The translations under genes were made by a program, and so were the position numbers. Positions 1-14,978 of a stretch of DNA of 32,000 nt are shown here, in pieces (positions within the stretch are counted from its first letter, which is position 1; the number at the start of each line of letters is the position of its first letter). The stretch lies in NCBI RefSeq assembly GCF_003010495.1, contig NZ_CP027570.1, forward strand, positions 660,001 to 692,000, read 5' to 3'. Source of the DNA: Megasphaera elsdenii DSM 20460. Its GTDB lineage: Bacteria > Bacillota > Negativicutes > Veillonellales > Megasphaeraceae. The notes under the pieces are model-generated. The model ran no database searches. It was not told the origin of the DNA and saw only the letters and a program-made list of their open reading frames with translations.

Positions 1-2
1 CT

Positions 3-665
3 GTGGATATACACCTTCACTGCATCACAGATCCACTGACCCATAGTAATTGTTACATTCTCTCAGAAAAATCCCGCACACTTATCATTGATCCAAACTG
101 TTACCAAGAAATCCATTCCTATCTTACGACTCATCAACTTGTTCCCGAGTATATCATTTTGACGCATGAGCACTGCGATCACATCGCAGCGCTCAATGAT
201 ATGCGTAAGTATTATAGCTTAAAAGTACTTTGTAGTGCGGCATGCAGTCAAGGGATTCAAAGCACGACACTAAATATGACCCGTATCATGGAGACCTATT
301 TATACTTTAAGAGCCAAGGGGAGCTCCAGGTCTCCTATCCCCCTTTTACTTGCCAAGCTGCCGATATCATTTTTGACAATACTTACTTAGCTACTTGGCA
401 AAACCATACTATCTTTTGTATTACAGCACCCGGCCATACTCCAGGCAGCACCTGCATCATCATAGATGAAAAGATGTTATTTTCTGGCGACTACTTTATT
501 CCTGGCGAAGAAGTCATCACCCGTCTTCCTGGTGGAGACGAAGAAACTTATGAGCAACAAGGAAAAGCCACTTTGCGTTGTCTGCCAACACCGATATTAA
601 CTTATCCGGGCCATGGTGAACCATTTATATTGACACAGGAGGTGAAAAAAAAATATGGACTATAG
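3..665 (+). CDS. MBL-fold metallo-hydrolase (N-terminus at or just beyond the window edge)
   Basis: The ORF carries the HxHxDH zinc motif (LTHEHCDH), then PGHTPGS and a C-terminal PGHG, typical of the metallo-beta-lactamase fold. GTG at 3 may be the start, or the ORF may continue upstream. The stop overlaps the next gene by 11 nt. Confidence 0.75.
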   Translation: MDIHLHCITDPLTHSNCYILSEKSRTLIIDPNCYQEIHSYLTTHQLVPEYIILTHEHCDHIAALNDMRKYYSLKVLCSAACSQGIQSTTLNMTRIMETYLYFKSQGELQVSYPPFTCQAADIIFDNTYLATWQNHTIFCITAPGHTPGSTCIIIDEKMLFSGDYFIPGEEVITRLPGGDEETYEQQGKATLRCLPTPILTYPGHGEPFILTQEVKKKYGL

Positions 666-1722
666 TAATTGGTTGATGCAACCGCCTTACCATTGGACAC
701 AGGACGAAAAAGAAGCCCATTACGTGCCTCTCTTATTCGAATTGACTTCTCACCACTGTCATTGCTGTCAACCTTATGGTCAAGCGATACAAACGCTGTA
801 TGAGAAAAATAAAAGATATGACTCTTCCAACCAAATCCCAATGCTTCCTATTTCTTTATTTAAAACAGAAGAACTAAAAAGCATCCCTGATTCCGAAATT
901 TTTAAAGTAATCACTTCGTCGGGAACATCGGGAGTGGCATCTCATTTATACCTCGACGCCTTTAACGCACAAAATCAACAATTGGCCTTATATAACATCG
1001 TGAAAGACTTTATTGGCTCCTCGCGACTCCCCATGTTGATTGTCGATACGCCGGATATATTAAAAAATCGAGACGCCTTTAATGCCCGCGGGGCAGCGGT
1101 CTTGGGCTTTTCCATCTTTGCTAAACGAAAATATTACGCATTAAAACCAGATCTATCCGTTGATTTGGAAAGCATCCGCACATTCATTCAGACATATCGT
1201 AATCAACCGGTCTTAATCTTTGGCTTTACTTTTATGATTTGGCAGTATCTTTGTGAAGCGCTGGCAAACTATCCAGGTTTAATTGATTTATCCAATGCAA
1301 TTTTAATCCACGGCGGAGGCTGGAAAAAAATGCAGGACCGCGCGGTTTCACCTCACGAGTATAAGAAACGGCTATATGAACAGTTCCAGATCCATAAAGT
1401 CCACAATTATTATGGCATGGCTGAACAAACAGGATGTATTTATATGGAATGTGAACAAGGCCATCTTCATGCCAGCATATTCTCCGATATTATCATTCGC
1501 AATCCAGAAAACTTTTCAGTCTGTCCCGTAGGAGAAACGGGCATTGTCCAAGTATTGACTCCACTGGCCACGTCCTATCCGGGTCATTCTATCCTGACAG
1601 AAGATATGGGCACCCTGTTAGGAATCGATGACTGCCCTTGTGGCCGTTTAGGAAAATATTTCCGCATTGATGGCCGCATGGCAAAAGCCGAAATAAGGGG
1701 GTGTAGTGATGCGCACAACTAA
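655..1722 (+). CDS. LuxE-type acyl-protein synthetase
   Basis: Motifs shared with Vibrio LuxE as I remember it: IPMLPISLFK, TSSGTSG, HGGGWKK and ATSYPGHSILTEDMG. A near-C-terminal Cys (IRGCSDAH) sits where LuxE is acylated. AGGAGGTG lies upstream of ATG 655. Confidence 0.75.
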   Translation: MDYSNWLMQPPYHWTQDEKEAHYVPLLFELTSHHCHCCQPYGQAIQTLYEKNKRYDSSNQIPMLPISLFKTEELKSIPDSEIFKVITSSGTSGVASHLYLDAFNAQNQQLALYNIVKDFIGSSRLPMLIVDTPDILKNRDAFNARGAAVLGFSIFAKRKYYALKPDLSVDLESIRTFIQTYRNQPVLIFGFTFMIWQYLCEALANYPGLIDLSNAILIHGGGWKKMQDRAVSPHEYKKRLYEQFQIHKVHNYYGMAEQTGCIYMECEQGHLHASIFSDIIIRNPENFSVCPVGETGIVQVLTPLATSYPGHSILTEDMGTLLGIDDCPCGRLGKYFRIDGRMAKAEIRGCSDAHN

Positions 1723-2899
1723 AAGCTTCACGATACTTGCCGGTTCGATTCCAGAAAAAATTATGCCCCAACAACCTTTTTCTCCGCTAACCTTGCAGTT
1801 TTGCCAAGATTTCGCGCACCAATTACAACAACGGCCTATCGCCAAAGAAGAGCCTGACTGGGCCGCTTTCAGTTTTTGGCTGCGCCCGCGAAAATTAGAA
1901 AGTTATAGAAAACTACTCACTTTTCCTGAAAAAAGATTAGGCCGAGGATTGACCTTTCATATAGCGCCAGCGAATATGCCTACCATGTTTTTATATAGTT
2001 TATTCATTTCCTTATTAGCTGGAAATGCTAATATCGTCCGGTTATCCCCCCGGTTGCTTCCCAAGGTACAGCCCGTTTGCGAATTACTCAACACTATATT
2101 GAATACACAGACATATCGTTCTATTAAAAACATGAATGTTATACTAACGTATGGTCACGACCGGAAAATAACGGATTGCTTCTCCAAACAGTGCAACAGC
2201 CGCATCATCTGGGGCGGCGATAAGACAATTCTTGAAATCAGAAAGTCACCGCTATCTCCCATGGCCATCGATATTCCTTTCGCGGACCGTTATTCATTGG
2301 CAATCGTCGACAGCGAATATGTCGCTAATTGCTCAGAAGACGAATTAAAAAATGCAGTCCACCACTTTTATCTGGATACCTACGAAGCCGATCAAAATGC
2401 TTGTTCCTCACCGCGCCTGCTCTTTTGGCTCGAAAAAAAATATGGCTTCTTTGCAATAGCTCAAGATCGCTGGTGGCGGGCTGTTACGATTGAAATCCAA
2501 AAGTACGACTTGGCAGCTATAAAAGTAAGTCGAAAATATGCAGAAGCTTGGACGTTTGCCATGCACACCCCTGAAATCAGTGACTTTTCATATGCAAGCA
2601 ACCGGCTTTATGTATACACCCTTGATTCACTTCCCAAAGACATTACTCAACTAGCAGGTTCCTTTGGACAATTTTTTCAATATCCTATAAAAAATCTAAA
2701 AGACATCATTCCTTATATGACAGCTAAAGTGCAGACGATTACAACTTTACATGTAGATATACAGGCGTTTCGTGCTCAGTTAATCGAAGCGGGAATTACC
2801 GGTGTCGATCGAGTGGTTCCCTTTGGACAGGCTATGGATATGGATATAATCTGGGATGGCCGTAATTTATTGGACGCGTTGACCCGTATCATTCGTTAG
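1709..2899 (+). CDS. LuxC-type acyl-CoA/acyl-enzyme reductase
   Basis: LuxC-like FHIAPANMP, IIWGGDKT and DQNACSSP (active-site Cys context). ATG 1709 follows a GGGGG RBS; GTG 1706 is the alternative start. The gene overlaps the end of the luxE-like gene. Confidence 0.7.
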   Translation: MRTTKSFTILAGSIPEKIMPQQPFSPLTLQFCQDFAHQLQQRPIAKEEPDWAAFSFWLRPRKLESYRKLLTFPEKRLGRGLTFHIAPANMPTMFLYSLFISLLAGNANIVRLSPRLLPKVQPVCELLNTILNTQTYRSIKNMNVILTYGHDRKITDCFSKQCNSRIIWGGDKTILEIRKSPLSPMAIDIPFADRYSLAIVDSEYVANCSEDELKNAVHHFYLDTYEADQNACSSPRLLFWLEKKYGFFAIAQDRWWRAVTIEIQKYDLAAIKVSRKYAEAWTFAMHTPEISDFSYASNRLYVYTLDSLPKDITQLAGSFGQFFQYPIKNLKDIIPYMTAKVQTITTLHVDIQAFRAQLIEAGITGVDRVVPFGQAMDMDIIWDGRNLLDALTRIIR

Positions 2900-2910
2900 G
2901 AGGGATACTT

Positions 2911-4329
2911 ATGTTGAACTTTTTTGATGAAAATCCGGCATATGAAAATCACGTATTATTCACCAATGGGGCAGGCCACTCTTTAACCTACAAAGACTGG
3001 TATACCCATAGCAGAAACTTAGAGGAAAAGCTTTCATCCCCAACAAGACAGTTAGCAGCTATCATCTGTCATAATACCATAGGGTCTGCCTTATCTTATC
3101 TCTGTTGCTTGCAAAATCGAATCGTCCCCTTACTCATCGATCACGACATGGACATAGAATTGCGTCAACGCCTGCTGTCCATTTATAAGCCTAATTATAT
3201 ATTCAAGCCTGTAGACGATGAAGTCGAACCTCTTTATACATTAAATGGATATGGCGTATATCAAGCAAATGATATAGCTCATAATATTCATTCCGATTTG
3301 GCGTTACTTCTGACAACGTCTGGCAGTACAGGCAGTCCCAAATTGGTCCGTCAAAGTTATACAAATATTCAATCCAATGCAGCGTCTATCGCACAATATT
3401 TAAAAATTACGGCACAAGACCATCCTATTTCTTCCTTGCCCATGCATTACACGTTTGGCCTTTCTGTCATCAATAGTCATGTACTATGCGGAGCCTGTGA
3501 ATGTCTGACAGAAGCAACTGTATTCGATAAAGAATTTTGGAATATTTGTCAAAATGACGAAATCACCTCTATTGCCGGTGTCCCCTTCACTTATGAATGT
3601 CTAAAGCGCATCGGCTTCATGGCCATGGATTTACCGAAATTAACGCTGATGATTCAAGCCGGTGGCCATTTATCAACACGCCTGCAAAAAGAATACCTGG
3701 AATTTGCCCATAAGACAGAGAAACGCTTTATCGTCATGTATGGTCAAACAGAAGCCACTGCACGCATGTCTTATCTGCCCTTTGATATGGGACTGAAAAA
3801 AATAGGCAGTATCGGCATTGCCATTCCCGGCGGGACCTTCCATATTATGGAAGATGAAAAAACGGAAATCACCCAGCCACATGTTACGGGCGAACTTTGC
3901 TATGAAGGACCCAATGTTACATTAGGTTATGCCCATTGTGCTGAAGATTTGGCCTTAGGCGACATGCGTCATGGCCGATTATATACGGGTGATATGGCCT
4001 ATTTCGATGAAGATGGATACTACTATATTGCGGGACGCAAAAAGCGCTTCATCAAAGTAATGGGTAAGCGTGTGAATATGGATGAAATGGAAGAACTGCT
4101 AAAAAGTGCTTTTGATTTCAGTGATTTCGCCTGTGTGGGTCAAGATGATGATCTGCACGTATTTATGACCAATAATACCCATCAATCTGAAGTTGAAGAC
4201 TTCCTTATAGAAAAGACAGGTTTGCATCTCCGTTGTTTTACAATCCATCACATTAAACAAATTCCTAAAAACACTTCTGGCAAAACACAGTATCCTGAAT
4301 TAAAGGCCTTGGCCGAAAAACAGGGGTGA
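2911..4329 (+). CDS. AMP-binding (adenylate-forming) enzyme, stand-alone
   Basis: Adenylation core motifs LLLTTSGSTGSPKLV, YGQTEA, YTGDMAYFDEDGYYYIAGRKKRFIKVMGKRV and C-terminal PKNTSGK. An AGGAGGG RBS ends 8 nt before the ATG. Confidence 0.85.
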   Translation: MLNFFDENPAYENHVLFTNGAGHSLTYKDWYTHSRNLEEKLSSPTRQLAAIICHNTIGSALSYLCCLQNRIVPLLIDHDMDIELRQRLLSIYKPNYIFKPVDDEVEPLYTLNGYGVYQANDIAHNIHSDLALLLTTSGSTGSPKLVRQSYTNIQSNAASIAQYLKITAQDHPISSLPMHYTFGLSVINSHVLCGACECLTEATVFDKEFWNICQNDEITSIAGVPFTYECLKRIGFMAMDLPKLTLMIQAGGHLSTRLQKEYLEFAHKTEKRFIVMYGQTEATARMSYLPFDMGLKKIGSIGIAIPGGTFHIMEDEKTEITQPHVTGELCYEGPNVTLGYAHCAEDLALGDMRHGRLYTGDMAYFDEDGYYYIAGRKKRFIKVMGKRVNMDEMEELLKSAFDFSDFACVGQDDDLHVFMTNNTHQSEVEDFLIEKTGLHLRCFTIHHIKQIPKNTSGKTQYPELKALAEKQG

Positions 4330-4334
4330 TAAAA

Positions 4335-5612
4335 ATGGATGCAGGTATCACCATTTCACAAGAACAATTACAAAAACTTTCCATAAATCAAATTCAATCC
4401 TTGCATATTCTTTCTCTCTCAGCTGAATCCCTACGCGATTTATTGCAAAAAGAGTCTGAAGAGAATCCTTTTATGGATTATAGCCCTAGCACAAGCAATA
4501 ATATTTCCTCTGATGGCTCTACTTCGTTTTTAAACTTTATAGCTGCTCCTGAAGAAAGAAGTGTGAAGCAATTTATTTTAGAGCAAGTAAATCTATCTAA
4601 TTTCACGACTCCCCAGTGGGCTCTTTTCTCCTATTTAACCGATTATGTCGATACACGGGGCTATTTAACTATTACAGAAGAAGAACTCAAAAAAAAGATT
4701 CCTTTACCCGACGGCCTTTTTGCTTCTTGTTTACGAATACTCCAAAACTTAGATCCTGCCGGAATTGGAGCTACATCTTTGACAAACTGTTTAAAATTAC
4801 AACTGCAACGAAAAAAACAGCTTACCCCTTTATTAGAAAACTTAATTGAAAACCATTTAAATGAAATAGGTGCACAAGATATATCTCACATCTGTCAATC
4901 ATTAAAAACGCCCAAAAAACAAATTTTGGCCGCTATCCGACTGATTAAGCGCTTAAATCCAGCTCCTTTAGAAGGATTATTTGAAACAAATTCAACCTAT
5001 ATCGTCCCTGACGTAATTATTAGGTTCATGCCTACAGGACATGAAATCATTTTAAATGACGCTTGGGTTGCCTCTTACTCCATGAGCGATTATTATGTCC
5101 GCATGATGCATACAACAACAGATGAAAGCGTAAAAAAATATTTCAAGACAAAATACACCCGCTGTCGCTTGTTATTTTATAATATAGAACGCCGACGCCA
5201 AACACTGTACAATCTGACCGATGTGATTTGCCATCATCAGCAAGCCTACCTGCAAAATCATGGCCCTTTAGCTCCAATGACACTGGCAGATATTGCTAAG
5301 GAAATCGGAGTGCATCCTTCAACAATTAGTCGGTCTATAAAGAACAAATATTTACAAACGCCATACACGACACTTTCTTTTAAAAATTTATTCCAACGCC
5401 CTTTTCCCAAGACGGGAAAAGATATTTCTAAAGAAGCATTAAAAAAAGAATTGTGTTGCCTGATAAAATCAGAAGACACGAAGCATCCCTATAGTGATGC
5501 TCAACTGACAAACATCCTTTCAACCCAATTTGGTCGAAGTTTTTCCCGTCGTCTTATCCAGAAATATCGGATACAATTGCATATTCCCAACTCCTATGAA
5601 CGCTACGGATAA
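4335..5612 (+). CDS. rpoN: RNA polymerase sigma-54 factor (425 aa)
   Basis: Gln/Leu-rich region I ending in EENPFMD, HTH TLADIAKEIGVHPSTISRSIKNKY, and RpoN box SRRLIQKYRIQLHIP. ATG 4335 lies 5 nt after the upstream TGA, preceded by an AGGGGTG RBS. The tracked GTG 4326 is less likely. Confidence 0.85.
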   Translation: MDAGITISQEQLQKLSINQIQSLHILSLSAESLRDLLQKESEENPFMDYSPSTSNNISSDGSTSFLNFIAAPEERSVKQFILEQVNLSNFTTPQWALFSYLTDYVDTRGYLTITEEELKKKIPLPDGLFASCLRILQNLDPAGIGATSLTNCLKLQLQRKKQLTPLLENLIENHLNEIGAQDISHICQSLKTPKKQILAAIRLIKRLNPAPLEGLFETNSTYIVPDVIIRFMPTGHEIILNDAWVASYSMSDYYVRMMHTTTDESVKKYFKTKYTRCRLLFYNIERRRQTLYNLTDVICHHQQAYLQNHGPLAPMTLADIAKEIGVHPSTISRSIKNKYLQTPYTTLSFKNLFQRPFPKTGKDISKEALKKELCCLIKSEDTKHPYSDAQLTNILSTQFGRSFSRRLIQKYRIQLHIPNSYERYG

Positions 5613-5655
5613 AGCATGTGTTTTTTATATATTTAACATACACCTTGCGATATTC

Positions 5656-5684
5656 TTGTTTACATAATTAAAAATTGTTATAAT
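5656..5684 (+). promoter_or_regulatory. sigma-70-type promoter for the activator gene (TTGTTT-17 nt-TATAAT, TG-extended)
   Basis: -35 TTGTTT at 5656-5661, a 17-nt spacer ending in TGT, and -10 TATAAT at 5679-5684. Read directly from the sequence; no experimental support. Confidence 0.4.
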
Positions 5685-5720
5685 TTTTTACATATGCATA
5701 TATGTAATATTTATTTCGCA

Positions 5721-5738
5721 GAGGCCCGTCAGGGCCTC
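5721..5738 (+). promoter_or_regulatory. GC-rich leader hairpin GAGGCCC-GTCA-GGGCCTC
   Basis: Perfect 7-bp stem with a 4-nt loop, followed by ATTGCTTCTTTG. It lies between the predicted promoter and the RBS of the bEBP gene. Confidence 0.35.
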
Positions 5739-5771
5739 ATTGCTTCTTTGTCGTAAAGGAGGACCATCTTT

Positions 5772-7235
5772 ATGACGAATGTAACAAAAATTTTTTCGAC
5801 ACTGTCCGAGGCCAGCGAACGGCTCAATGCCATTATTGAACATTCTTTTGATGGCATTTTCATTACCGATGCAAAGGCCAATGTTATCCGTATCAATCAT
5901 GCCTACGAAGTCATTACCGGCTTAAAGAAAGAAGAAGTCCTCGGAAAAAACATGGCTGATCTCGTGCGCAATAAATTAATCTCAGAATCAGGCTCCCTGC
6001 AAGTTATTAAAACGAAACAACCAGTAACACTGCAACAATGCTTTCGTTCAGGAAAGGAAGCGTTAGTAACTAGTTCTCCTATTTTTGACGCCGACGGCAA
6101 TTTCATTATGATTGTCACCAATGTTCGGGATTTGACAGAAATTTATAATTTAAAAGCTGTCGTCCAAGAAAAAACGGCTGCCATGGATCGCCTAGCTATG
6201 GAACTGGAACATTTACAAACAACGTCAGAAGACAATCAGGAAATCATCGCTAAGGATGAAACAACCTTAGCAGCCATGCTGCTTGCCAACCGCGTAGCAT
6301 CCATGGACACGACGGTTATTCTACTAGGAGAAACGGGTGTCGGGAAAGAAGTGATGGCCCGATATATTTTCCAGCACAGCCATCGCGCAAAAAATAGTTT
6401 CATTAAAGTAAACTGTGGGGCTATCCCAGAAAATCTGATTGAAAGTGAACTCTTCGGGTATGAAGGTGGCGCTTTTACAGGCGCCAATAAAAACGGAAAA
6501 ATCGGTCTCTTTGAATTGGCTAATAAAGGCACCTTATTTCTCGATGAAATTGGGGAACTTCCCAAAGACATGCAAGTAAAATTGCTACGTGTTCTTCAAG
6601 AACAAGAAATCTTGCGCGTCGGTGGTACGAAGCCCGTAAAAATTGATGTCCGCATCATTGCCGCTACGAACCGAAATTTAGAAGAAATGGTAAAAGACGG
6701 TACTTTCCGTGAGGATTTATATTACAGGCTCACTGTCTTTCCCATTTCCATTCCGCCATTGCGGATGCGAAAAAAGGATATCATCCCCTTGGCGCTCTCT
6801 TTCCTGGAAAAGCTGAATCAAAAATATCAACTGAAAAAGTATTTTACCGACTTATCCATGCAGCTTCTCCACGAATACGACTGGCCTGGTAACATCCGCG
6901 AATTAAAGAACATCGTCGAAAGAGCAATTATTATAAGTCCTTCAGATGCAATAAAGCCGGAAGATCTCCATATACATTCTGCTAGTAAACCAATCGTAAT
7001 TATAAAAGAAAATGATTTTAGCGATAATACAAAAAATTCTTTACCGCCCTCCCCCGAATTTCCGATAAATTTAAAAAATACTCTCGAAAAAATAGAGTAT
7101 ACCTACATGGTCCAAGCCTATAAATTCTTTGGCAACGTGCGCGATGCTGCCAAAAATTTGGGACTCACACCTTCTACCTTTGTACGGAAACGCAAGCAAT
7201 ATCAGCAAAACAATACGGACCCTGAAAGGATGTGA
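5772..7235 (+). CDS. sigma-54-dependent transcriptional activator (PAS sensor, AAA+, Fis-type HTH)
   Basis: N-terminal PAS-like domain, Walker A GETGVGKE, sigma-54 contact loop [23 protein letters not shown], and C-terminal HTH ([17 protein letters not shown]). An AAAGGAGG RBS precedes ATG 5772. Confidence 0.9.
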
Positions 7236-7240
7236 GCAAT

Positions 7241-8275
7241 ATGACAACTCTGGAAGAAATCCGTAAAAAAGCCCGTGCTAAAATGAAAGGTTGTTATGTC
7301 TGTCCTGATTGTGATGGTAATGCCTGTTCCGGGATGATTCCTGGTTATGGCGGTATGCGGACAGGCCAATCTTTTCGTAATAATCGATTGTCCTTCCAAA
7401 AATATGGTCTCCTATCTCATCTCTTATCGGCTAGCAAAAACCCAGATACGACGTGTTCTATTTTTGGAAAAACGTTATCCATGCCCATTCTTATCGCCCC
7501 AGTCAGCGGCTATGTCCATAATGGAAAAATAGAAGGAAATCCGGAAGAAAAAGAATATGAATATCTCTTTTCTATGACTGAAGGAGCTGCAAAAGCAGGA
7601 ACACTGGTATTTACCGGCGATAGTGGCCATGCTTATATGTATGAAGCTGGGATTGCCGCTTCAAAGAAATATCCAAAACACGTAATTCCGACAATAAAGC
7701 CGCGAAAAAATCAAAAAATCATTGAGAAAGCACGACTAGCTGAACAATCAGACGCATTCGCAGTGGCAAACGACGTTGATGCCGTAACCTCCGCGAATAT
7801 GCGATTTTTTGGCCAGCCCTTAGAAGTAGAGCGGCTAAAAAATCTAAAATACATTATTAGTTCCATTCATCTCCCTTTCATTGTAAAAGGCATTATGTCC
7901 CCTGATGAAGCCTTGCTTTGCCTAGAAGCAGGCGCCAAAGGAATTGTTATCAGCAATCACGGAGGCCGCATACTCGATGGTATGGCTAGTCCTTTATCTG
8001 TCCTGCCCGAAATTTCTGCCGTTGTAAAAAACAGATTAACAATTTTCATAGATGGCGGAATCCGACACGGTGAAGACGTCCTAAAAGCATTGGCCCTAGG
8101 AGCTGACGCAGTATTAATCGGTCGACCTGCTGCTATTGCAAATATAGGTGGATACGCAGAAGGCGTTACATTGCTCCTCGATACCTTAAAGCAAGAATTA
8201 CAAGATGCTATGACAATAACAGGCATTCCTGATTTGCAACACATATCGTCTAATATTTTACAAAAAATAAAATAA
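7241..8275 (+). CDS. FMN-dependent alpha-hydroxy-acid oxidase/dehydrogenase family protein
   Basis: TIM-barrel FMN_dh-like motifs (GIVISNHGGR, IFIDGGIRHGEDVLKALALGADAVLIGRP). The N-terminus has a CYVCPDCDGNAC patch. ATG 7241 with a GAAAGGA RBS is preferred over the tracked GTG 7232, which overlaps the bEBP stop. Confidence 0.75.
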   Translation: MTTLEEIRKKARAKMKGCYVCPDCDGNACSGMIPGYGGMRTGQSFRNNRLSFQKYGLLSHLLSASKNPDTTCSIFGKTLSMPILIAPVSGYVHNGKIEGNPEEKEYEYLFSMTEGAAKAGTLVFTGDSGHAYMYEAGIAASKKYPKHVIPTIKPRKNQKIIEKARLAEQSDAFAVANDVDAVTSANMRFFGQPLEVERLKNLKYIISSIHLPFIVKGIMSPDEALLCLEAGAKGIVISNHGGRILDGMASPLSVLPEISAVVKNRLTIFIDGGIRHGEDVLKALALGADAVLIGRPAAIANIGGYAEGVTLLLDTLKQELQDAMTITGIPDLQHISSNILQKIK

Positions 8276-8420
8276 CAATCCCAAGAAACTTTAAACACTA
8301 TCTCGACATATTGCCTCAAATATGCAAATCTACCCAATTTTGCTAAAATAAAGGCAATCAATAGTCTATACAATTTGACTTTTTGCCTTGTATGCCATTC
8401 CCCTTTTAGGAGGTTTTATC

Positions 8421-9224
8421 ATGGATTATTTAAGCAATATGTTTTCTTTGAAAGGTAATGTCGCCCTCATTACGGGCGGTTCTTACGGCATCGGTTTTGC
8501 CATTGCCAAAGCGTTAGCCCGTGCTGGCGCCGTGATTGCCTTCAACTGCCGCAGTCAGGAACATCTGGATCAGGCCATGAAGGATTATGAAAAAGAAGAC
8601 ATTGAAGCTCACGGCTATCTTTGCGATGTCACTGATGAGCTCCACGTGCAAAAATTGGTCAGTGAAATAGAAAAGACGTTGGGGACTATCGACATCCTCG
8701 TCAATAACGCCGGTATCATCAAACGTATCCCCATGTGTGACATGACGACGGAAGAATTCCGCCAGGTCGTCGATATCGACTTAGTCGGTTCGTTCATCGT
8801 ATCCAAGGCAGTCATTCCCGGTATGATAAAAAAAGGCCACGGCAAAATCATCAATATCTGCTCTATGATGAGCGAATTAGGACGTGAAACCGTGTCGGCT
8901 TACGCCGCAGCCAAAGGCGGTCTGAAAATGTTGACCCGTAATATCTGTTCCGAATTCGGCGGCGCCAATATCCAGTGCAATGGCATTGGCCCTGGCTACA
9001 TCGCAACGCCCCAAACGGCCCCGCTGCGTGAGAAACAGCCTGATGGCTCCCGCCATCCTTTCGACCAGTTCATCGTCTCTAAGACGCCAGCTGGCCGCTG
9101 GGGAACGACAGAAGACCTCGAAGGCCCGGCTGTTTTCTTAGCTTCCCATGCTTCGGACTTCGTAAACGGACACATTTTATACGTCGACGGCGGTATCCTA
9201 GCCTACATCGGAAAGCAACCGTAA
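8421..9224 (+). CDS. SDR-family oxidoreductase, gluconate 5-dehydrogenase-like
   Basis: MDYLSNMFSLKGNVALITGGSYGIGFAIA, NNAG and YAAAKGG (YxxxK). An AGGAGG RBS lies 7 nt before ATG 8421; the tracked start 8388 is an upstream TTG extension. Confidence 0.85.
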   Translation: MDYLSNMFSLKGNVALITGGSYGIGFAIAKALARAGAVIAFNCRSQEHLDQAMKDYEKEDIEAHGYLCDVTDELHVQKLVSEIEKTLGTIDILVNNAGIIKRIPMCDMTTEEFRQVVDIDLVGSFIVSKAVIPGMIKKGHGKIINICSMMSELGRETVSAYAAAKGGLKMLTRNICSEFGGANIQCNGIGPGYIATPQTAPLREKQPDGSRHPFDQFIVSKTPAGRWGTTEDLEGPAVFLASHASDFVNGHILYVDGGILAYIGKQP

Positions 9225-9229
9225 ATGCT

Positions 9230-9258
9230 TTGTGCAATCCGGCTGGTTTTGCTACAAT
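9230..9258 (+). promoter_or_regulatory. sigma-70-type promoter TTGTGC-17 nt-TACAAT
   Basis: Hexamers at 9230-9235 and 9253-9258, about 50 nt upstream of ATG 9308. Confidence 0.35.
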
Positions 9259-9307
9259 AGAGTCAATCCGTAGTCCGTCATAATTATTGTCTAAAGCAGG
9301 TGAAACC

Positions 9308-10638
9308 ATGAATACTCAAATGCCCATCGGCGTAGATGACTTCAAGGAAGTCCGGGAGAATTATTATTTTGTCGATAAAACCCATTTCATCCAATCCCTC
9401 ATTGATGGCCACAGTAAAGTGACCTTATTGACCCGGCCCCGTCGTTTTGGGAAAACCCTGACGATGAGTATGCTCGATTACTTCTTTTCCTTAGAAAGAG
9501 AGCCGGAAAGCCTTCACCTGTTTGATGGTTTGCAGATTGCCAGAGCGGGAATCGATTATATGAAGCATCGAGGCCAGTACCCTGTCCTCTTCATGAACTT
9601 CAAAGGCATCCAGAATGATACCTGGGATTTAGCTTTCAATGCCTTCCAGCTGGTCATCCAAAAGGAATTCCAGCGGCATCGTTATTTGTTGGACACTCCG
9701 GAATTGGCTCCTGAAGAAAAACAACTCTATAGCCGTTTCCTCGATAATACGGCCACGCTTGCAGAATACCAAATCAGCCTGCTCTACTTATGCGAATATC
9801 TCTACCGGTACTATAAAATTCGGCCAATTATTCTGATTGATGAGTACGACGCGCCCATCCAGAACGCCTATAACCATGACTTCTATAATACGGCTATCTC
9901 CTATTTCCGTACCTTTTACAATAACACCTTAAAAGGGAATGAGTTCCTGAATTTCGCTATTCTCACCGGTGTCCTGCGCATTGCAAAAAAGAGCATCTTC
10001 AGTGGCCTGAACAATCTCCGTGTCTGCTCGATTCTTGATAATGCCTATGCCGATGTCATGGGATTTACGGAAGAAGAAGTAACTCAAATAGCTAAGGATA
10101 CGGGGGAAGAACAGACCCTGCCGACCTTAAAGAAGTGGTATGATGGTTATCGGTTCGGGAACATCGACATATATAATCCCTGGTCGATCATCAACTTCTT
10201 TGCTGAACGGACAGCCGACGATTATTGGGTCAATACGTCCTCGAATGACATCATCCAGCATATGATGCAGGGAAATGCAAAAAGCCAGGAAAAGAACCTG
10301 CCGACCCTCCTGCATGGCGGAACTGTCGCCGCCATCATCCGAGAAGGCTTGATTTATAAAGATATTACCCAAAATAAAGATGGACTCTATACCCTTTTAC
10401 TGATGACAGGCTATCTGACAGCCGTCCAGAATACGACTGTCCCCAATGGACGTCTTTGCCAGCTCAGGATTCCCAATGAAGAATTGACACATGTCTTCCA
10501 AAGCGAAATCCTCAACTTAGAGCCCTTCAGCAAATCGAAAAGCAGCAATATATCGCTGAATTCAAGCAGAAGCAGATACCCTCAGTCCTGAAATACGGTA
10601 TCTCATTCTGCGGGAAGAAGATTTATGTAACCAGGTAA
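9308..10638 (+). pseudogene. AAA-ATPase-like / PD-(D/E)XK (PDDEXK_9-type) protein with internal deletion and frameshift
   Basis: The first ~400 aa (MNTQMPIGVDDFKEVRENYYFVDKT...TRPRRFGKT) fit the predicted AAA-ATPase family. The frame stops at 10591. The +1 frame continues ALQQIEKQQYIAEFKQKQIPSVLKYGISFCGKKIYVTR*, the usual extreme C-terminus of the fused nuclease domain. The nuclease core between them is absent. Confidence 0.55.
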
Positions 10639-10654
10639 TAGAGATGGCTAAAAT

Positions 10655-10855
10655 GTGCCGAGAATTAGAGAATTAGAGAAATGGAGCATGGAAGAGCGTC
10701 AAGAAGGTCTTGTCGAAGGGCAGCGCAAGGGCGAAGATAATCTGGCAAAACTGCTGAAATTGTTGAAGGCTGATGGCCGCTTACGTGATTTGGATTTAGC
10801 CATAGAAGACGAAGAGGCCCGAAAAGCGTTATACAAGGAATATCACATTGACTAA
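10655..10855 (+). CDS. small Glu/Lys-rich ORF, probably a gene fragment
   Basis: GTG 10655 or ATG 10688. The helical charged sequence (EGQRKGEDNLAKLLKLLKADGRL...) resembles C-terminal tails of larger nuclease/transposase-like proteins. It begins inside an 8-nt tandem, GAGAATTA x2.6 (10660-10680). Confidence 0.25.
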   Translation: MPRIRELEKWSMEERQEGLVEGQRKGEDNLAKLLKLLKADGRLRDLDLAIEDEEARKALYKEYHID

Positions 10856-10862
10856 AAAAATT

Positions 10863-10899
10863 CCCCCGATGCTATCGAAATAGTGGACAGCATCAGGGG
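10863..10899. terminator. bidirectional intrinsic terminator between convergent genes
   Basis: CCCCGATGCT pairs with AGCATC(A)GGGG across a 15-nt loop. An A-run lies on the left and a T-rich stretch on the right. Confidence 0.5.
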
Positions 10900-10919
10900 A
10901 TTCTTTATTTATCAGGGAA

Positions 10920-12239
10920 CTATGCTCCGGCAACTTCTTTATTTTTGTTCAACATGATGTGCAAGACTTCGCAATCTGTCTGCTGCATACCATTAGATGC
11001 CAAGAGGCCTACGTTTCGGATACATTCATCTGCCGTATCGGCGACGAGCCCATCTGTACCTTCTACGCGGATACCGGCTAAGGCCATGAGGACCGAACGA
11101 TAAGCGATTTCCGCTGCCGAAGCGACTTTCATGGCACAGCTATCGGCGGCACCATCACAGACCATACCGACGATGCCGCCATTCATAGATGAAATAGCTT
11201 TGCAAATAGTCTGATACGGTGTCTTTCGGTCGAGGAGCCAAGCCATGCCAGCCGCTGCTCCCATGGCAGCCGTAACGGTCGCGCAAAAGGCAGACAACTT
11301 GGGTAAATAGCTGTGCGCATAGATAGCGACCATACTGGCCAAAGCCAGGGCCCGGACGCGTTCTTCGCCAGAGGCTTTGATATGGTCAGCGACAACTGTT
11401 ACTGGCTCAGATACGGTGATGCCCTGATTCCCGGAACCAGAATTGGTCATGGCCGGACAGGCAGCGCCACCCATGCGAGCGTCTGAAGCGGCCACTGTAC
11501 GGACTTGGATTTCACGAGCCAAATCGCCTGCCAACAGGCCCTCTTTGATGCTCTTTTCCATGGTGCAGCCAATGCGCAGGCCATATTTCCCCGTCAGACC
11601 TTCTTTAGACAAGGCATCATTTAAATTTTCTGCATTCTTGATGAATTGGATATTGGCAAGGGGAATATTTTCAGCAAATTCCAAAATATCTTTGATGGAA
11701 AGGGACTGCAAAAAAGTGATTTTATCGGCTTCACTATCATTACAGCTCGCTTTTTTTTCAAAAATAACCTGTCCATCTTTTTCGATTAAGACAACGTTCG
11801 TATGGTTATCGACGATGACGGCGCGGACATGATGGCTTTCTCCATAGACATTGGCTTCCGAATAAAGGATATGCTTTGTCGTTTCATTGACACCAACGGT
11901 GACTTTGCCGTCAGCTACCATTTGTTTGCCTTGGGCTACCACATCAGGCGTCAAGGATTTCAGGACCTGGAGACCTGCGTTAGCATCGCCGCCCAGGGCA
12001 CCAACAGCAGCAGCAATAGCCAATCCCGGCATGCCGGTGCCTGGAACCATAACGCCCATCCCATTTTTCATCAAATTAGCGGAAACAAAGGCTTTGACAG
12101 CTTGTACGGGTTCTCCCAATTCTTTCGCCGCCGTAGCCGCTGCAAAAGCCAGGGAAATCGGTTCCGTACATCCCGTAGCCGGTTTGATATCTTGCTTCAT
12201 GATTTCAATCATTTTATTCCACATAGTACATGTTTCCAT
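10920..12239 (-). CDS. cyuA: UPF0597/YhaM-family L-cysteine desulfidase-like protein (serine dehydratase alpha-like)
   Basis: The N-terminus WNKMIEIMKQDIKPATGCTEPISLAFAAATAA resembles E. coli YhaM/CyuA. The protein is Gly/Ala-rich with a TNSGSGNQG motif. An AGGAG RBS lies 7 nt before ATG 12239; the tracked start 12248 is GTG. Confidence 0.75.
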   Translation of the reverse strand: METCTMWNKMIEIMKQDIKPATGCTEPISLAFAAATAAKELGEPVQAVKAFVSANLMKNGMGVMVPGTGMPGLAIAAAVGALGGDANAGLQVLKSLTPDVVAQGKQMVADGKVTVGVNETTKHILYSEANVYGESHHVRAVIVDNHTNVVLIEKDGQVIFEKKASCNDSEADKITFLQSLSIKDILEFAENIPLANIQFIKNAENLNDALSKEGLTGKYGLRIGCTMEKSIKEGLLAGDLAREIQVRTVAASDARMGGAACPAMTNSGSGNQGITVSEPVTVVADHIKASGEERVRALALASMVAIYAHSYLPKLSAFCATVTAAMGAAAGMAWLLDRKTPYQTICKAISSMNGGIVGMVCDGAADSCAMKVASAAEIAYRSVLMALAGIRVEGTDGLVADTADECIRNVGLLASNGMQQTDCEVLHIMLNKNKEVAGA

Positions 12240-12288
12240 TATTATCACTCCTAAAAAAAATCAATCTATAAAATAATCCGTTATAGAC

Positions 12289-13626
12289 TTACGAAAAAGC
12301 CAGGAACGGTGAGATAATTAACAAGATGCCCGTCGCAATGATGAGATATAACGAAACGCCTTTCAAGTCATGCAAGCGCGGCACCCGGTAGACGAGATAA
12401 GCCGGAATCAGGCAGCCAATCATGCCAAAGACAGGGCTGCAAATTGAAGTAAAGCTCAAAACGGGAGCATTGAGGATAATGGCACCCCACGACACGAGAA
12501 CAGCAAAGACCAGGATACCCAAGGAAACGGCACGTGCATTAATCTTATCTTCTGGCATAATGCGTTTCAAGCAGTTCATGGCAATGCCGCGGCAGGCTTC
12601 GCGGAAACCCAGGAAGACGCCGAAGAAGGCCGTAACGACAGCAAAAATATTTAGAATCAAACTCATGATCTTAATGGATGTGCCGGGAATCCCCTGGGCA
12701 GCCAATGCTAAAGCAGAAATATTGTTTTCATAAGCCATAACAGCTTGGTCATGGCCCATAGCCAAGTTGAACGAAATAGCATAGAAAAATACGGTGACAA
12801 AGAGCACGCCAAAGGCGATATTCATGGCCCGCAAAGCCTTGTACCGGGCAACTTCAATCGACTTATTATGAGAACGATAGGAAATGACCATCGGGCTCAA
12901 GCTCTGTAAAAATAAAATAGATGTCAGCGTAAAAGGCAGCATGATGATAGTCTGCTTGATGAGATAGCCAAAATCGGGAAAACTACCTATATTCGCTAAA
13001 TTCCAATGCTGGACCATAATCATACCCAAAACAGCTACGACGCACAGCTTCGTCAAGACCATTAGCGTAGAAATCTTGAAGAGTACTTTTTCGCCACGAG
13101 AAGCAATGGCTACGAGGGCACAAATAATGACCAACCCGTATAACGGATTTTTAGCCAGTGAATGGTCCGTCACGCCAAAGGTGACTAAGAAGGAAGCACT
13201 GTCATTATTGATGGCCGTCGAATAGACGAATACCCAGATAATGAGCATCAGGAAGTAAAGAAGACCTAAGAACAGGCCCCAGTTCTTGCCCAAGTAGTTG
13301 CCAATGACACTAGGATAATCTTCACATCTTTCAGATTTTGCCAGAGTATTAATGAATAATCGCTGGAAAAGGTACATAGCCGGATAACCGATAATAGATG
13401 ACAAGAGATAAATCCAAATCCCTGCCAAGCCTACCTGTACCGGTAAAAATACGATGCCTGCACCGATAGCCATGCCGATACTCATGATGACCCAGCCCCA
13501 GTCGGTACTGTCAAACTTGACGGCTTCTTTCCACTGGGCCTTGGTCATACCCGCTTTTTCCCATCGGGTCAACTTTTCTTTCCCCAAAGTTTGTCCTTTA
13601 TCAGGACACTGAACTGTCTGTTCCAT
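12289..13626 (-). CDS. HAAAP-family amino-acid permease (YhaO/CyuP, SdaC, TdcC-like)
   Basis: About 11 hydrophobic segments and an N-terminal WGWVIMSIGMAIGAGIVFLP motif typical of hydroxy/aromatic amino acid permeases. It sits directly upstream of the cyuA-like gene, as in E. coli cyuPA. An AAGGAG RBS precedes the start. Confidence 0.7.
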   Translation of the reverse strand: MEQTVQCPDKGQTLGKEKLTRWEKAGMTKAQWKEAVKFDSTDWGWVIMSIGMAIGAGIVFLPVQVGLAGIWIYLLSSIIGYPAMYLFQRLFINTLAKSERCEDYPSVIGNYLGKNWGLFLGLLYFLMLIIWVFVYSTAINNDSASFLVTFGVTDHSLAKNPLYGLVIICALVAIASRGEKVLFKISTLMVLTKLCVVAVLGMIMVQHWNLANIGSFPDFGYLIKQTIIMLPFTLTSILFLQSLSPMVISYRSHNKSIEVARYKALRAMNIAFGVLFVTVFFYAISFNLAMGHDQAVMAYENNISALALAAQGIPGTSIKIMSLILNIFAVVTAFFGVFLGFREACRGIAMNCLKRIMPEDKINARAVSLGILVFAVLVSWGAIILNAPVLSFTSICSPVFGMIGCLIPAYLVYRVPRLHDLKGVSLYLIIATGILLIISPFLAFS

Positions 13627-13718
13627 TCTATCAATCTCCTTTTATAGTGTAATCCCTTCATTCCACACAAGATACCGTCATTGCCTATACGCTTGTATGC
13701 CCCTCTTTTTTCAATAAA

Positions 13719-13747
13719 ATATTATCATAGTAATAATTATTTTGCAA
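13719..13747 (-). promoter_or_regulatory. sigma-70 promoter for the permease/desulfidase operon (TTGCAA-17 nt-TAATAT, TG-extended)
   Basis: On the minus strand the -35 is at 13742-13747 and the -10 at 13719-13724. This leaves an ~85-nt leader. Confidence 0.45.
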
Positions 13748-13822
13748 TATTTCTTATTTTGTCTTTTTGTAATAAACGATTACTATGGATTGTTCTTTTG
13801 TAATGAACTTACAAAGTCAAAA

Positions 13823-13862
13823 AAATATCCTGCCAAAAATAAAATATTTTAGCAGGATATTT
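13823..13862 (-). terminator. intrinsic terminator (11-bp inverted repeat AAATATCCTGC / GCAGGATATTT, 18-nt loop)
   Basis: Perfect arms at 13823-13833 and 13852-13862. On the minus strand a run of T follows. It would stop transcription coming from the yheO-like gene. Confidence 0.45.
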
Positions 13863-13913
13863 ATATTTTCGTTATATTTAGTTTCTTGTAAAAGGACAAC
13901 CTCAAAGAAAAAT

Positions 13914-13962
13914 CAACCTCTCAGACCGCCTTTGGGCGGCCAGCTCTCCTAGGAAGAGAGCC
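13914..13962. repeat. two-hairpin intergenic repeat module, copy 1
   Basis: CAACCTCTCAG-[ACCGCC TTTG GGCGGC]-CAG-[CTCTC CTAGGAA GAGAG]-CC. It has the same frame as 18469-18514, with different but still complementary stems. Confidence 0.6.
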
Positions 13963-13976
13963 TTTCGCCTCACTTT

Positions 13977-14197
13977 TTAGAAGCCGGCTTTGGACAATTC
14001 GTCTCTCATGGCCCGGCGGTTCCGATAAGTTTCCCGCCATTCTTGGGCGATTTTACGGGCTATGTTCAGGCCTTCGGGATAGGTGCTGAGTTTTTTTCAG
14101 GTAAACGATGCAATCTCGATATTGATTGCGGCTATTCAGTCCAGGCATGGCCTTTTTCACATAGTCCGCATAAAAGAAGTCTCTCCAATTTCCTAAA
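13977..14197 (-). pseudogene. orphan C-terminal gene fragment with a frameshift in a homopolymer
   Basis: The minus strand reads ...GNWRDFFYADYVKKAMPGLNSRNQYRDCIVYLKK, then after the A7 run (T7 at 14091-14097 on plus) shifts frame to LSTYPEGLNIARKIAQEWRETYRNRRAMRDELSKAGF*. There is no start codon or RBS. The family is not recognised. Confidence 0.3.
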
Positions 14198-14975: not shown

Positions 14976-14978
14976 GGG

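Follow-up and report, generated by a model that had tools for sequence, protein, structure and literature searches.

A sigma-54-controlled locus of Megasphaera elsdenii that joins 4-hydroxybutyrate enzymes to a putative carrier-protein-dependent carboxylate reductase

Introduction

Why does the rumen bacterium Megasphaera elsdenii, a Negativicute, encode relatives of the fatty-acid reductase proteins LuxE and LuxC next to a sigma-54 factor and a sigma-54 activator, and which acid might these proteins reduce? The genes in question occupy positions 1-8275 of a 32,000-nt stretch of strain DSM 20460 (NZ_CP027570.1, positions 660,001 to 692,000 of the forward strand), which is called the window in the following and is numbered 1-32,000. 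A first-pass annotation, made from the letters of the window without database searches, read them as a low-GC island with a carboxylate-reductase module and its own sigma-54, knew of no characterised pathway with this gene set, and took a surface-polysaccharide acyl-substituent pathway as the null hypothesis. The analysis described here confirms the observation and leads to a partly different picture. A locus that spans 17.6 kb or more, very probably a 4-hydroxybutyrate locus of the sigma-54/XanR type, has its right half in positions 1-8275. The gene set had been described before, in the XanR regulon (PMC6615313), and its core in flagellin islands.

The locus and its two predicted divergent operons

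The sequence upstream of the window was taken from HE576794.1 (GCA_000283495.2; locus L004), to which the window is 100% identical over an 11.7-kb overlap, from about position 394,580. Genes of the window are given in window numbering and upstream genes in L004 numbering. Directly upstream of the window, on the same strand, lie nifU (99 aa), a gene for a 243-aa protein that combines a Cys-rich AF_0334 domain (KYCGGCNPRYDR...) with a MaoC hotdog domain (L004 8363-9094), and a 78-aa open reading frame (ORF). Across an intergenic region of about 580 bp with 27% GC, a divergent operon encodes AbfD, a CoA-transferase (AbfT), a permease, a 204-aa protein and a GldA-type alcohol dehydrogenase (ADH). 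AbfD scores 781 bits to the 4-hydroxybutyryl-CoA dehydratase of C. aminobutyricum (1U8V), the CoA-transferase 560 and 490 bits to the 4-hydroxybutyrate CoA-transferases 3EH7 and 3GK7, and the ADH 475 bits to the GldA family. Judged by these similarities, the enzymes that convert 4-hydroxybutyrate to crotonyl-CoA, AbfD and 4-hydroxybutyrate CoA-transferase, are genuine at this locus.

By its sequence the 78-aa ORF is an acyl carrier protein (ACP). Its match to Pfam PP-binding is weak (E 0.03), and a family profile of 15 members matches dozens of solved ACPs, 2LML best (E 1.7e-5). The motif WDSxGHM is invariant in the 15 members, with W33-D34-S35 aligned to the DS motif of the solved ACPs, the serine of which bears the phosphopantetheine arm. 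The window lacks a carrier protein because it begins 6 nt past the stop codon of this gene; the earlier statement that none was in view is correct for the window and fails one gene further upstream. The true ATG of the first window gene likewise lies outside, 4 nt before position 1 (L004 9343) and 1 nt past the ACP stop codon.

The rightward operon would thus comprise nifU, the Cys-rich maoC gene, acp, a metallo-beta-lactamase (MBL) gene, luxE, luxC, an AMP-ligase gene and rpoN, and the leftward operon abfD, abfT, the permease gene, the gene of the 204-aa protein of unknown function and the GldA-type ADH gene. The unit delimited by the first-pass annotation was incomplete in that nifU, the Cys-rich maoC gene, acp and the divergent abfD/abfT operon adjoin it upstream, which is where the annotation had suggested looking for a carrier protein and a -24/-12 promoter and where both were found; the genes it assigned within the window were borne out. 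These are the features of the window part:

1..665, plus strand: MBL-fold hydrolase (Pfam Lactamase_B, 45.9 bits)
655..1722, plus strand: LuxE-like acyl-protein synthetase (PF04443, 175 bits)
1706..2899 (start 1709 according to gene callers), plus strand: LuxC-like acyl-thioester reductase (PF05893, 86 bits)
2911..4329, plus strand: stand-alone AMP-forming ligase (PF00501, 132 bits)
4335..5612, plus strand: rpoN, sigma-54 paralogue (TIGR02395, 313.9 bits; Sigma54 AID, CBD and DBD)
5721..5738, plus strand: GC-rich hairpin GAGGCCC-GTCA-GGGCCTC, a terminator-like site with a weak T-tract (ATTGCTTCTT)
5772..7235, plus strand: bacterial enhancer-binding protein (bEBP) of PAS-AAA+-HTH architecture (PAS; Sigma54_activat, 238 bits; AAA_lid_14; HTH_8/HTH_50)
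7232..8275, plus strand: FMN-dependent 2-hydroxyacid dehydrogenase/oxidase homologue, FMN_dh (PF01070, 228 bits)

The seven plus-strand ORFs (3-665, 655-1722, 1706-2899, 2911-4329, 4326/4335-5612, 5772-7235 and 7232/7241-8275) overlap or are 5-11 nt apart, with a gap of 159 nt as the single exception, in agreement with the tight packing first reported. Every Pfam match of the seven proteins exceeds the gathering score, including those to LuxE, LuxC, AMP-binding, Lactamase_B and FMN_dh that had been proposed as a check, and the scores for AMP-binding (132 bits) and Lactamase_B (45.9 bits) confirm the predicted extra adenylating enzyme and MBL hydrolase.

Probable transcription control by sigma-54

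A sigma-54-dependent XanR regulon was predicted in silico for C. beijerinckii, C. kluyveri and C. tyrobutyricum by Nie et al. 2019 (BMC Genomics 20:565, PMC6615313). Its targets are 'abfD-nifU-hyp-ach-golB' and 'acp-caiC-luxEC', for which promoter and upstream activating sequences (UAS) were given, and its genes include CKL_3020/3021/3027 of C. kluyveri and Cbei_2099/2100 of C. beijerinckii (PMC6615313). A literature search for the C. kluyveri locus tags CKL_3020-3029 found no paper. The layout in M. elsdenii is that of the regulon, with a bEBP gene beside operons of the abfD-nifU and acp-caiC-luxEC types.

The promoters follow the same scheme. Measured against the -24/-12 consensus of the XanR regulon (TTGGCATNNNNNTTGCT; Nie et al. 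2019), both operons are preceded by a match: an exact one (TTGGCATGATTTTTGCT) on the minus strand, 81-97 nt upstream of abfD, and a variant with TTTCA as its -12 element (TTGGCACGATAATTTCA) on the plus strand, some 40 nt before the start codon of nifU. For the match that faces abfD the chance expectation is 0.25 per 21 kb even with one mismatch. The TTTCA variant is identical in the sister species and therefore not the outcome of random decay. Divergent canonical -24/-12 pairs occupy the same intergenic region in eight further loci, those of two other Megasphaera (L011, L091), C. cadaveris (L016), Anaerostipes (L019), a Lachnospiraceae bin (L033), Treponema vincentii (L039), a Paludibacteraceae-labelled bin (L047) and Clostridium sp. 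AM30-24 (L073). The five Lacrimispora-type loci checked have a LysR gene in place of the bEBP gene and contain no such pair. The loci with abfD contain 17 matches in 418 kb versus 4 in 777 kb of the loci with glycan genes described below, an about eightfold difference in density. Within the window a loose -24/-12 pattern matched coding regions only, 24 times versus 17 expected, which is near chance, and a stricter regular expression gave zero matches; the promoters sit upstream of the window.

The bEBP has the features required for activation of sigma-54, the GAFTGA motif (GGAFTGA in the translation), the PF00158 domain (238 bits) and HTH_8/HTH_50. Homologues with 54-75% identity are encoded beside abfD/LuxE clusters in six surveyed loci, of Megasphaera (L011), Pelosinus (L013), C. 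cadaveris (L016), Anaerostipes (L019), the Paludibacteraceae-labelled bin (L047) and Clostridium sp. AM30-24 (L073). From position and shared targets, and solely from these, we infer that it is orthologous to CKL_3021 and Cbei_2099. An assignment as PrdR was rejected (422 bits versus a cut-off of 795).

The clostridial XanR UAS, GTTGCA-N4-TGCAAC, was found in C. cadaveris (L016; GTTGCATAAATGCAAC) and in Megasphaera sp. L011. In M. elsdenii the two sigma-54 promoters flank a perfect palindrome, ATGAAACAAAT-TACC-ATTTGTTTCAT, each arm of which has 11 nt (L004 7756-7781). It overlaps a GTTCCA-N5-TGAAAC site that resembles TTGTTCCA-N5-TGGAACAA of Anaerostipes (L019 3235-3258), and it is not conserved in the sister species. 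The palindrome with its GTTCCA-N5-TGAAAC site may be a candidate, if a weak one, for an enhancer motif alternative to that of clostridia. The half-site motif TGTTYCA is enriched in some loci only and provides a lead.

How the bEBP gene itself is expressed bears on the 159-nt gap in front of it (5613-5771), which has 70-80% A+T followed by the GC-rich hairpin; the latter ends 33 nt short of the bEBP start codon. A search of the gap for a sigma-70 consensus promoter gave no match, and Rfam at gathering thresholds revealed no RNA family in window positions 1-17500, the hairpin included. The hairpin may be a terminator, an attenuator or an element of a 5' untranslated region; if it terminates the rpoN transcript, little room remains for a bEBP promoter.

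The sigma factor gene of the cluster encodes a complete sigma-54. It reaches 313.9 bits against the TIGR02395 equivalog cut-off of 277.35, and PF00309, PF04963 and PF04552 are above threshold. Clostridiales genomes carry a single sigL (PMC6615313). M. elsdenii DSM 20460 contains two full-length rpoN genes, MELS_0350 and MELS_0442, and seven EBPs, and is the sole one of the ten Negativicutes compared there with two rpoN genes (PMC12316311, supplementary tables). The rpoN gene of the window is probably MELS_0350, as estimated from gene density; MELS_0442 was not located among the RpoN homologues, where no match of 30-39% identity could be assigned to it. Among the homologues of 47-84% identity all organism-named members belong to Megasphaera; identity then drops to 39%, 35% and finally at most 33% (Fusobacterium, Peptoniphilus). 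Five other Megasphaera loci were examined (L011, L091, L092, L093, L094); in each of them an rpoN homologue stands after the ligase gene, and a bEBP gene comes next in the four that extend that far. A sigma-54 gene also stands beside the module in one Lachnospiraceae bin (L033). These comparisons support the view that the cluster rpoN is a divergent second paralogue, inherited with the cluster in a lineage restricted to Megasphaera. With two rpoN genes in the genome and the same operon slot across Megasphaera, the idea that the module has its own sigma-54 holds.

Since rpoN is the last gene of an operon with a sigma-54 promoter, positive feedback is implied. No promoter for basal rpoN expression was found, and basal expression must come from elsewhere. 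In a literature search for sigma-54 of Megasphaera elsdenii and rpoN of Megasphaera nothing relevant appeared. A sigma-54 gene is said to adjoin the succinate cluster of C. kluyveri, reportedly described by Sohling and Gottschalk in 1996.

Distribution of the module

The surroundings of the module were compared in loci of 80 species-representative genomes, annotated by BLASTP with reference proteins. Of about 8,000 LuxE candidates scored, the 120 best were mostly at least 51% identical, and at least 587 genome matches were confirmed; the homologues listed include those of Cronobacter, Lacrimispora, Hungatella and Sporomusaceae. The ligase was detected, with at least half of the query covered, in 75 of the 80 loci. 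The core of ACP, ligase, LuxE and LuxC occurs in two settings. In 41 loci (type A, glycan) it is accompanied by FabG-type short-chain dehydrogenases/reductases (SDR), a split transketolase and DegT/PglD sugar enzymes; in Cronobacter this setting appears to be a flagellin glycosylation island, beside what is probably fliA. In 22 loci (type B, abfD-linked) abfD, with 77-92% identity, lies within 10 kb. Of these 22, 20 have abfT, 20 have nifU, 18 have the Cys-rich maoC gene and 12 have the MBL gene, in all 12 between the ACP and LuxE genes; the MBL gene was also found in nine glycan-type loci. The hosts of the abfD-linked setting are Negativicutes, Clostridia, one spirochaete and one Bacteroidota-labelled bin. 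In Lacrimispora the module is placed between sucD-4hbD-abfD-cat genes and a thl-crt-hbd-larA-LDH-bcd-etf block.

The two settings also separate by LuxE sequence. A neighbour-joining tree was built on aligned segments, since LuxE-LuxC fusion ORFs distort a full-length tree. In its leaf order the 24 abfD-linked entries (the 22 survey loci, L004 and L009) are contiguous and apart from the glycan type, and three stand-alone modules with the abfD-type gene order join them. As the midpoint root falls inside the abfD-linked group, no monophyly is claimed. One of the stand-alone modules, that of Pseudoflavonifractor (L061), encodes a Cys-rich protein with a FabA-type hotdog domain, ACP, MBL, LuxE, LuxC, the ligase and an iron-containing ADH (Fe-ADH).

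The Cys-rich N-terminal domain (AF_0334; YCGGCNPRYDR ... GC..C) has about 70-90 aa and looks metal- or cluster-binding. It is joined to a MaoC hotdog in Megasphaera and to the FabA-type hotdog in Pseudoflavonifractor (L061 8305-9039); the two proteins share 35% identity, in the N-domain only, with the type of dehydratase swapped. A NifU-like gene usually adjoins the Cys-rich hotdog gene. In a metagenome contig of M. elsdenii (L006 8529-9341), nifU is about 470 nt closer to acp and no maoC gene was called. Most of the Cys-rich maoC gene thus seems to have been lost by a natural deletion that left the remaining operon intact.

Single LuxE-LuxC ORFs of 761-902 aa (starts at about 9,900-10,000) occur in L034, L047, L073, L051, L056, L057 and L087; three of the seven loci are abfD-linked and four are of the glycan type or other. 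RfbN of V. cholerae is probably similar to such a fused LuxE-LuxC.

The LuxE, LuxC, ligase and MBL enzymes

The translations contain the motifs TSSGTSG, HGGGWKK and a C-terminal RGCSD in LuxE and QNACSSP in LuxC. LuxE scores 175 bits versus a gathering score of 24.9 of PF04443, residues 10-353 covering profile positions 25-385 of 391, and residues 10-351 align to LuxE of P. phosphoreum (7XC6_E, E 6e-19). Its K224, R341 and C350, invariant in the family alignment (A1), are aligned to K238, R355 and C364 of P. phosphoreum LuxE, residues required there for adenylation and self-acylation (PMC9157457). In the LuxC-like protein the PF05893 match (86 bits, threshold 21) is confined to residues 73-241. 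A single-sequence search of the PDB gave no match for it, and a family profile (A2) was required, which matches LuxC of 7XC6_A over 76-394 with E 1.3e-9. The invariant Cys233 (DQNACSSP) is aligned to the catalytic Cys (DQQACFS) of 7XC6_A. The conserved Lys, Arg and Cys of LuxE and Cys233 of LuxC make plausible a relay from acyl-AMP to the Cys of LuxE, to the Cys of LuxC and on to the aldehyde. Pfam, motifs and residue alignments thus agree with the original LuxE and LuxC calls and their intact catalytic signatures, and the sequence from carboxylate to acyl-AMP, thioester and aldehyde is the best reading of what the pair would catalyse.

Orthology to the bioluminescence proteins was rejected, since LuxE reaches 77 bits versus a cut-off of 550 and LuxC 27.9 bits versus 750 with the NCBIfam equivalogs (NF052244 / NF052251). 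No luxA, luxB or luxD was found in the window or its 10-kb flanks, as had been noted for the part first in view.

The best solved relative of the ligase, named CaiC by Nie et al., is oxalate-CoA ligase (5IE0, E 3.9e-28), and its partial NCBIfam matches, all below cut-off, include o-succinylbenzoate-CoA and malonyl-CoA ligases; it is presumed to load the ACP. The nearest solved sequences of the MBL protein are MBLs of about 210 aa, several of them named hydroxyacylglutathione hydrolase (7EV5, 2XF4, 7L0B). As a member of this small glyoxalase-II-like subgroup it is probably a thioesterase.

A proposed reaction sequence and its alternatives

From the gene identities, the catalytic residues, the linkage to abfD, the promoters and the rpoN paralogy, all directly observed, we infer the operon structure, a step order, a substrate and a connection with 4-hydroxybutyrate, which taken as a whole are proposed tentatively. 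The XanR-type PAS-bEBP and the dedicated sigma-54 paralogue would drive both divergent operons from their -24/-12 promoters. The LuxE/LuxC part would be a carrier-protein-dependent carboxylate reductase of the kind long proposed for the synthesis of tetronate (2,4-dihydroxybutyrate) in V. cholerae; that it reduces a carboxylate in an ACP-dependent manner is likely. The AMP-ligase would attach a short, probably C4, dicarboxylic acid to ACP through one carboxyl. LuxE would adenylate the free distal carboxyl and pass the acyl group through its C-terminal Cys350 to Cys233 of LuxC, which would use NAD(P)H to form the aldehyde. An ADH would convert the aldehyde to the omega-hydroxyacyl-ACP, and the hotdog dehydratase and the glyoxalase-II-like MBL would trim and release the product. 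The latter would enter, or stem from, the branch that leads from 4-hydroxybutyrate via crotonyl-CoA to butyrate.

One ACP, two adenylating enzymes and LuxC are constant, and a substrate with two carboxyls is therefore the simplest explanation. Pointers in this direction, all of them weak, are oxalate-CoA ligase as nearest relative of the ligase, the glyoxalase-II-like MBL and a 102-Da group on flagellin; the added Fe-ADH and the retained Cys-rich domain of the Pseudoflavonifractor module support the proposed chemistry. A C4 omega-hydroxyacyl module beside 4-hydroxybutyrate enzymes suggests a shared metabolite pool. The flagellin group is an unidentified terminal moiety of 102 Da on the polar flagellin glycan of A. 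piscicola AH-3, a strain with acp-fabG-ligase-luxE-luxC (PMC7874193). By our own arithmetic, which is not part of PMC7874193, C4H6O3 has 102.03 Da and corresponds to a dihydroxybutanoyl (tetronate-type) residue, and a Pse derivative of 376 Da equals Pse5Ac7Ac (316 Da) with one acetyl (42 Da) swapped for an acyl of 102 Da.

Several points weigh against this proposal. Two ATP-to-AMP activations per molecule are too costly for a bulk fermentation. In C. kluyveri and Lacrimispora the cluster that holds the module also encodes the cheap SucD route, and the module is therefore no simple replacement of it. The hotdog dehydratase has no obvious substrate on a route from succinate to 4-hydroxybutyrate. 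The matches of the ligase to dicarboxylate ligases are of the generic ANL-family kind, far below the family cut-offs. With regard to regulation, the -12 element of the nifU promoter is degenerate, and the clostridial UAS is absent from the about 580-bp intergenic region of M. elsdenii. On account of the ATP cost, the coexistence with SucD and the idle dehydratase, a C4 dicarboxylate as substrate and a 4-hydroxybutyrate-type product must be called doubtful. The widest form of the proposal, in which an ATP-driven reduction of the distal carboxyl of an ACP-bound C4 dicarboxylate feeds the radical enzyme AbfD, the Megasphaera version is autoregulated by a private sigma-54 and the 102-Da group of Aeromonas finds its explanation, is rather unlikely to be correct in all its parts.

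The ATP cost affects other explanations as well. The module might reduce monocarboxylates as an electron sink, LuxE and LuxC acting on butyrate, crotonate or 4-hydroxybutyrate and an ADH yielding butanol or 1,4-butanediol, with ACP and ligase as an alternative acyl donor to LuxC. Nie et al. class the XanR regulon under 'Butyrate/Butanol synthesis' (PMC6615313), ADHs are encoded in the divergent operon (the GldA-family protein) and in the stand-alone module of L061, and LuxE retains all residues needed to activate a free acid unaided. Such a sink is nevertheless costly in ATP and leaves unexplained the hotdog protein, the MBL and the fact that most of the 80 loci also encode ACP and another adenylating enzyme besides LuxE. 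M. elsdenii is not known as an alcohol producer, and we consider the sink unlikely. The cost would suit biosynthesis better than fermentation, as in a small branch that converts a 4-hydroxybutyrate intermediate at low flux to a signal, a lactone, a lipid or a substituent of the cell envelope, abfD being co-regulated for precursor supply. Lactonases are among the proteins with an MBL fold, the module has a biosynthetic sister lineage in glycan loci, and strain-level variation is seen in the metagenome contig that lacks most of maoC. Yet no transferase, condensing enzyme, exporter or glycosyltransferase is conserved beside the abfD-type module, and its association with catabolic abfD/abfT is tight across several phyla. 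We consider the branch about as unlikely as the sink.

Biosynthesis of a glycan substituent, the null hypothesis of the first-pass annotation, fits 41 of the 80 homologous loci with their DegT, PglD, FabG and split-transketolase genes, among them the Cronobacter module near the probable fliA, and papers on flagellin glycosylation islands list the same genes (PMC4875605, PMC7874193). It does not fit the locus studied here. In M. elsdenii and the other abfD-type loci the 10 kb to each side are free of sugar-nucleotide, glycosyltransferase and acyltransferase genes, the genes are arranged as ACP-MBL-LuxE-LuxC-ligase here as opposed to ACP-ligase-LuxE-LuxC, and the module is regulated together with a fermentation operon. 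Since the LuxE of the window belongs to the abfD lineage, apart from the glycan type, the polysaccharide hypothesis fails at this locus, where it is largely refuted and very improbable. Equally remote is a classical lux-like reductase of long-chain fatty acids that makes fatty aldehydes or alcohols for lipids or waxes. Membership in the Pfam families LuxE and LuxC and the conserved catalytic residues would agree with it, whereas the equivalog scores (77 versus 550 and 27.9 versus 750 bits) and the short-chain acid context, with no luxD or luxAB, do not. The LuxC-like protein, moreover, has 397 aa as compared with the 477-aa solved LuxC chain, of which it aligns to residues 137-444; the N-terminal part of LuxC and its C-terminal oligomerisation segment (P460-P488 in the numbering of PMC9157457) are unmatched.

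Composition of the locus and the FMN_dh gene

Composition was compared within the window and with the upstream flank in L004. GC is 0.409 in positions 1-8275, 0.462 in 8276-17000 and 0.531 in 17001-32000. GC at third codon positions (GC3) is 0.32-0.42 in the seven genes, lowest in rpoN (0.319), and 0.49-0.73 in each gene to the right; the values jump at about 8.3 kb, in line with the first description. Of the island postulated for 1-8.3 kb, the right border is real, while the left edge is that of the window. Low GC (0.419) extends at least 9.3 kb upstream of the window, where genes have a GC3 of 0.32-0.49. This brings the low-GC tract to a length of at least 17.6 kb, with its left end beyond the sequence examined.

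The GC content of the cluster is about 41-44% in M. elsdenii and its sister species, where that of the flanks reaches 49-53%. Cluster and flank match in Megasphaera sp. ASD88 (L091; 0.556 versus 0.569), and in another Megasphaera species both have about 0.44. The cluster stands directly upstream of DUF134-ParA in L091 and L092, whereas a further 10 kb separate it from these two genes in M. elsdenii. Its position at DUF134-ParA in two other Megasphaera argues that the cluster is old in the genus and that only the composition of the M. elsdenii clade is odd, which replacement by a copy from a lower-GC relative would fit. No integrase was found at the right border, and the cluster is shared with L091 and L092.

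Compared with ASD88, M. elsdenii contains a mosaic insertion of about 10 kb that extends from the start of FMN_dh (7232/7241) to 17135. It encodes FMN_dh, a KduD-like SDR, an AAA-ATPase-like and a serine-dehydratase-alpha-like protein, a permease, a YheO-type regulator, RidA and an IS605-family TnpB. The genes for DUF134 and ParA/Mrp (window 17136-18331) follow the bEBP gene directly in L091 and L092. FMN_dh comes after the bEBP gene only in M. elsdenii and the sister species (L093/L094). Despite its translational coupling to the bEBP gene and its low GC3, it is, as part of the insertion, a passenger. The FMN oxidoreductase that had been counted with the unit is thus confirmed as a Pfam match and lost as a constant member. 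Identification as an L-lactate dehydrogenase or oxidase was rejected, with at most 142 bits versus NCBIfam equivalog cut-offs of at least 376.

The KduD-like SDR is a remnant of the KduI/KdgT/KduD/KdgK/KdgA hexuronate cluster that the sister species L093 shows. ARAGORN predicted a 95-nt tRNA-Lys(CTT) at 15559-15653, 45 nt upstream of the TnpB gene (15698-16984), where Rfam at the gathering threshold found no tRNA or other RNA; the site may be a tRNA-like or degenerate element tied to the IS605-family gene.

Significance

The ACP-ligase-LuxE-LuxC core is very common, in the decoration of flagellin and O-antigen in pathogens as well as in butyrate-pathway loci of gut and rumen anaerobes. Its role in the abfD-linked version would add a step to, or remove one from, models of butyrate synthesis from succinate, gamma-aminobutyrate or 4-hydroxybutyrate. 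If the C4-dicarboxylate route were true, it would be a new entry into butyrate formation in these anaerobes; if the module proves to serve a minor side branch, the XanR regulon has simply gained one more member. The Megasphaera arrangement offers a compact test case for the question why a second rpoN exists and for positive feedback of a sigma factor with a single regulon. The regulatory picture was largely known already; the enzymology of the module is now tied to a testable hypothesis on a C4 acid.

Comparison with known systems

The closest known system is the XanR regulon, of which the locus is a member as defined in silico. Both have a bEBP gene beside abfD-nifU-CoA-transferase(-ADH) and acp-caiC-luxEC operons, each with a -24/-12 promoter, and both contain the families AbfD, NifU, 4-hydroxybutyrate CoA-transferase, GldA-like 'golB', ACP, ligase, LuxE and LuxC. 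They differ in that the host of the M. elsdenii locus is a Negativicute, nifU comes first in the luxEC operon and not after abfD, the order is ACP-MBL-LuxE-LuxC-ligase with the Cys-rich MaoC and the MBL added, a second, divergent rpoN is last in the target operon, and the clostridial UAS was not found. In the succinate-to-butyrate cluster of C. kluyveri (cat1-sucD-4hbD ... sigL; reportedly described by Sohling and Gottschalk in 1996, cited via PMC6510779) 4-hydroxybutyrate genes are likewise linked to a sigma-54 gene, whereas the linked sigma-54 gene of M. elsdenii is an extra paralogue.

Among the V. cholerae tetronate genes VC0248-0252 is that of WbeL, a ligase of 471 aa (PMC3441752). The tetronate module shares with M. 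elsdenii an ACP, a ligase of about 471 aa and LuxC/LuxE-like functions; its product, tetronate, is a C4 omega-hydroxy acid one hydroxyl away from 4-hydroxybutyrate. In papers of the 1990s RfbN reportedly resembles LuxC and LuxE, and RfbM is reportedly an Fe-ADH. The last enzyme of the tetronate module is an acyltransferase, and its target is perosamine of an O-antigen cluster, whereas the M. elsdenii locus has no sugar or acyltransferase genes within 10 kb, is accompanied by the hotdog protein, the MBL and fermentation neighbours, and has ADHs only in the divergent operon. Flagellin glycosylation islands of Aeromonas group II and Enterobacteriaceae contain uncharacterised 'fatty-acid-synthesis-like' genes for Acp, FabG, CaiC, LuxE and LuxC (PMC4875605, PMC7874193). 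The four-gene core is the same, with 49-54% identity of LuxE (Cronobacter, Kosakonia, Pantoea), but the islands have their own FabG reductases, a split transketolase and DegT/PglD-type enzymes, and their LuxE stands apart from that of abfD-linked loci.

With LuxC-LuxE of P. phosphoreum (7XC6) the M. elsdenii proteins share the fold families, the catalytic Cys of LuxC and, in LuxE, the Lys/Arg pair and the Cys near the C-terminus, and the mechanism of the acyl relay is therefore probably the same. They differ by the lack of LuxD and LuxAB, a LuxC that is about 80-90 residues shorter, ACP and a second ligase as obligatory partners of the module, and the lack of a long-chain context. The locus is thus neither a bioluminescence-type reductase nor a glycan locus; its LuxCE core shares a family with the flagellin-island genes and probably with the tetronate genes. 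What is new is the Negativicute version of the regulon, with nifU, the Cys-rich maoC gene and the MBL gene merged into the luxEC operon, a private sigma-54 paralogue and a clade-specific composition.

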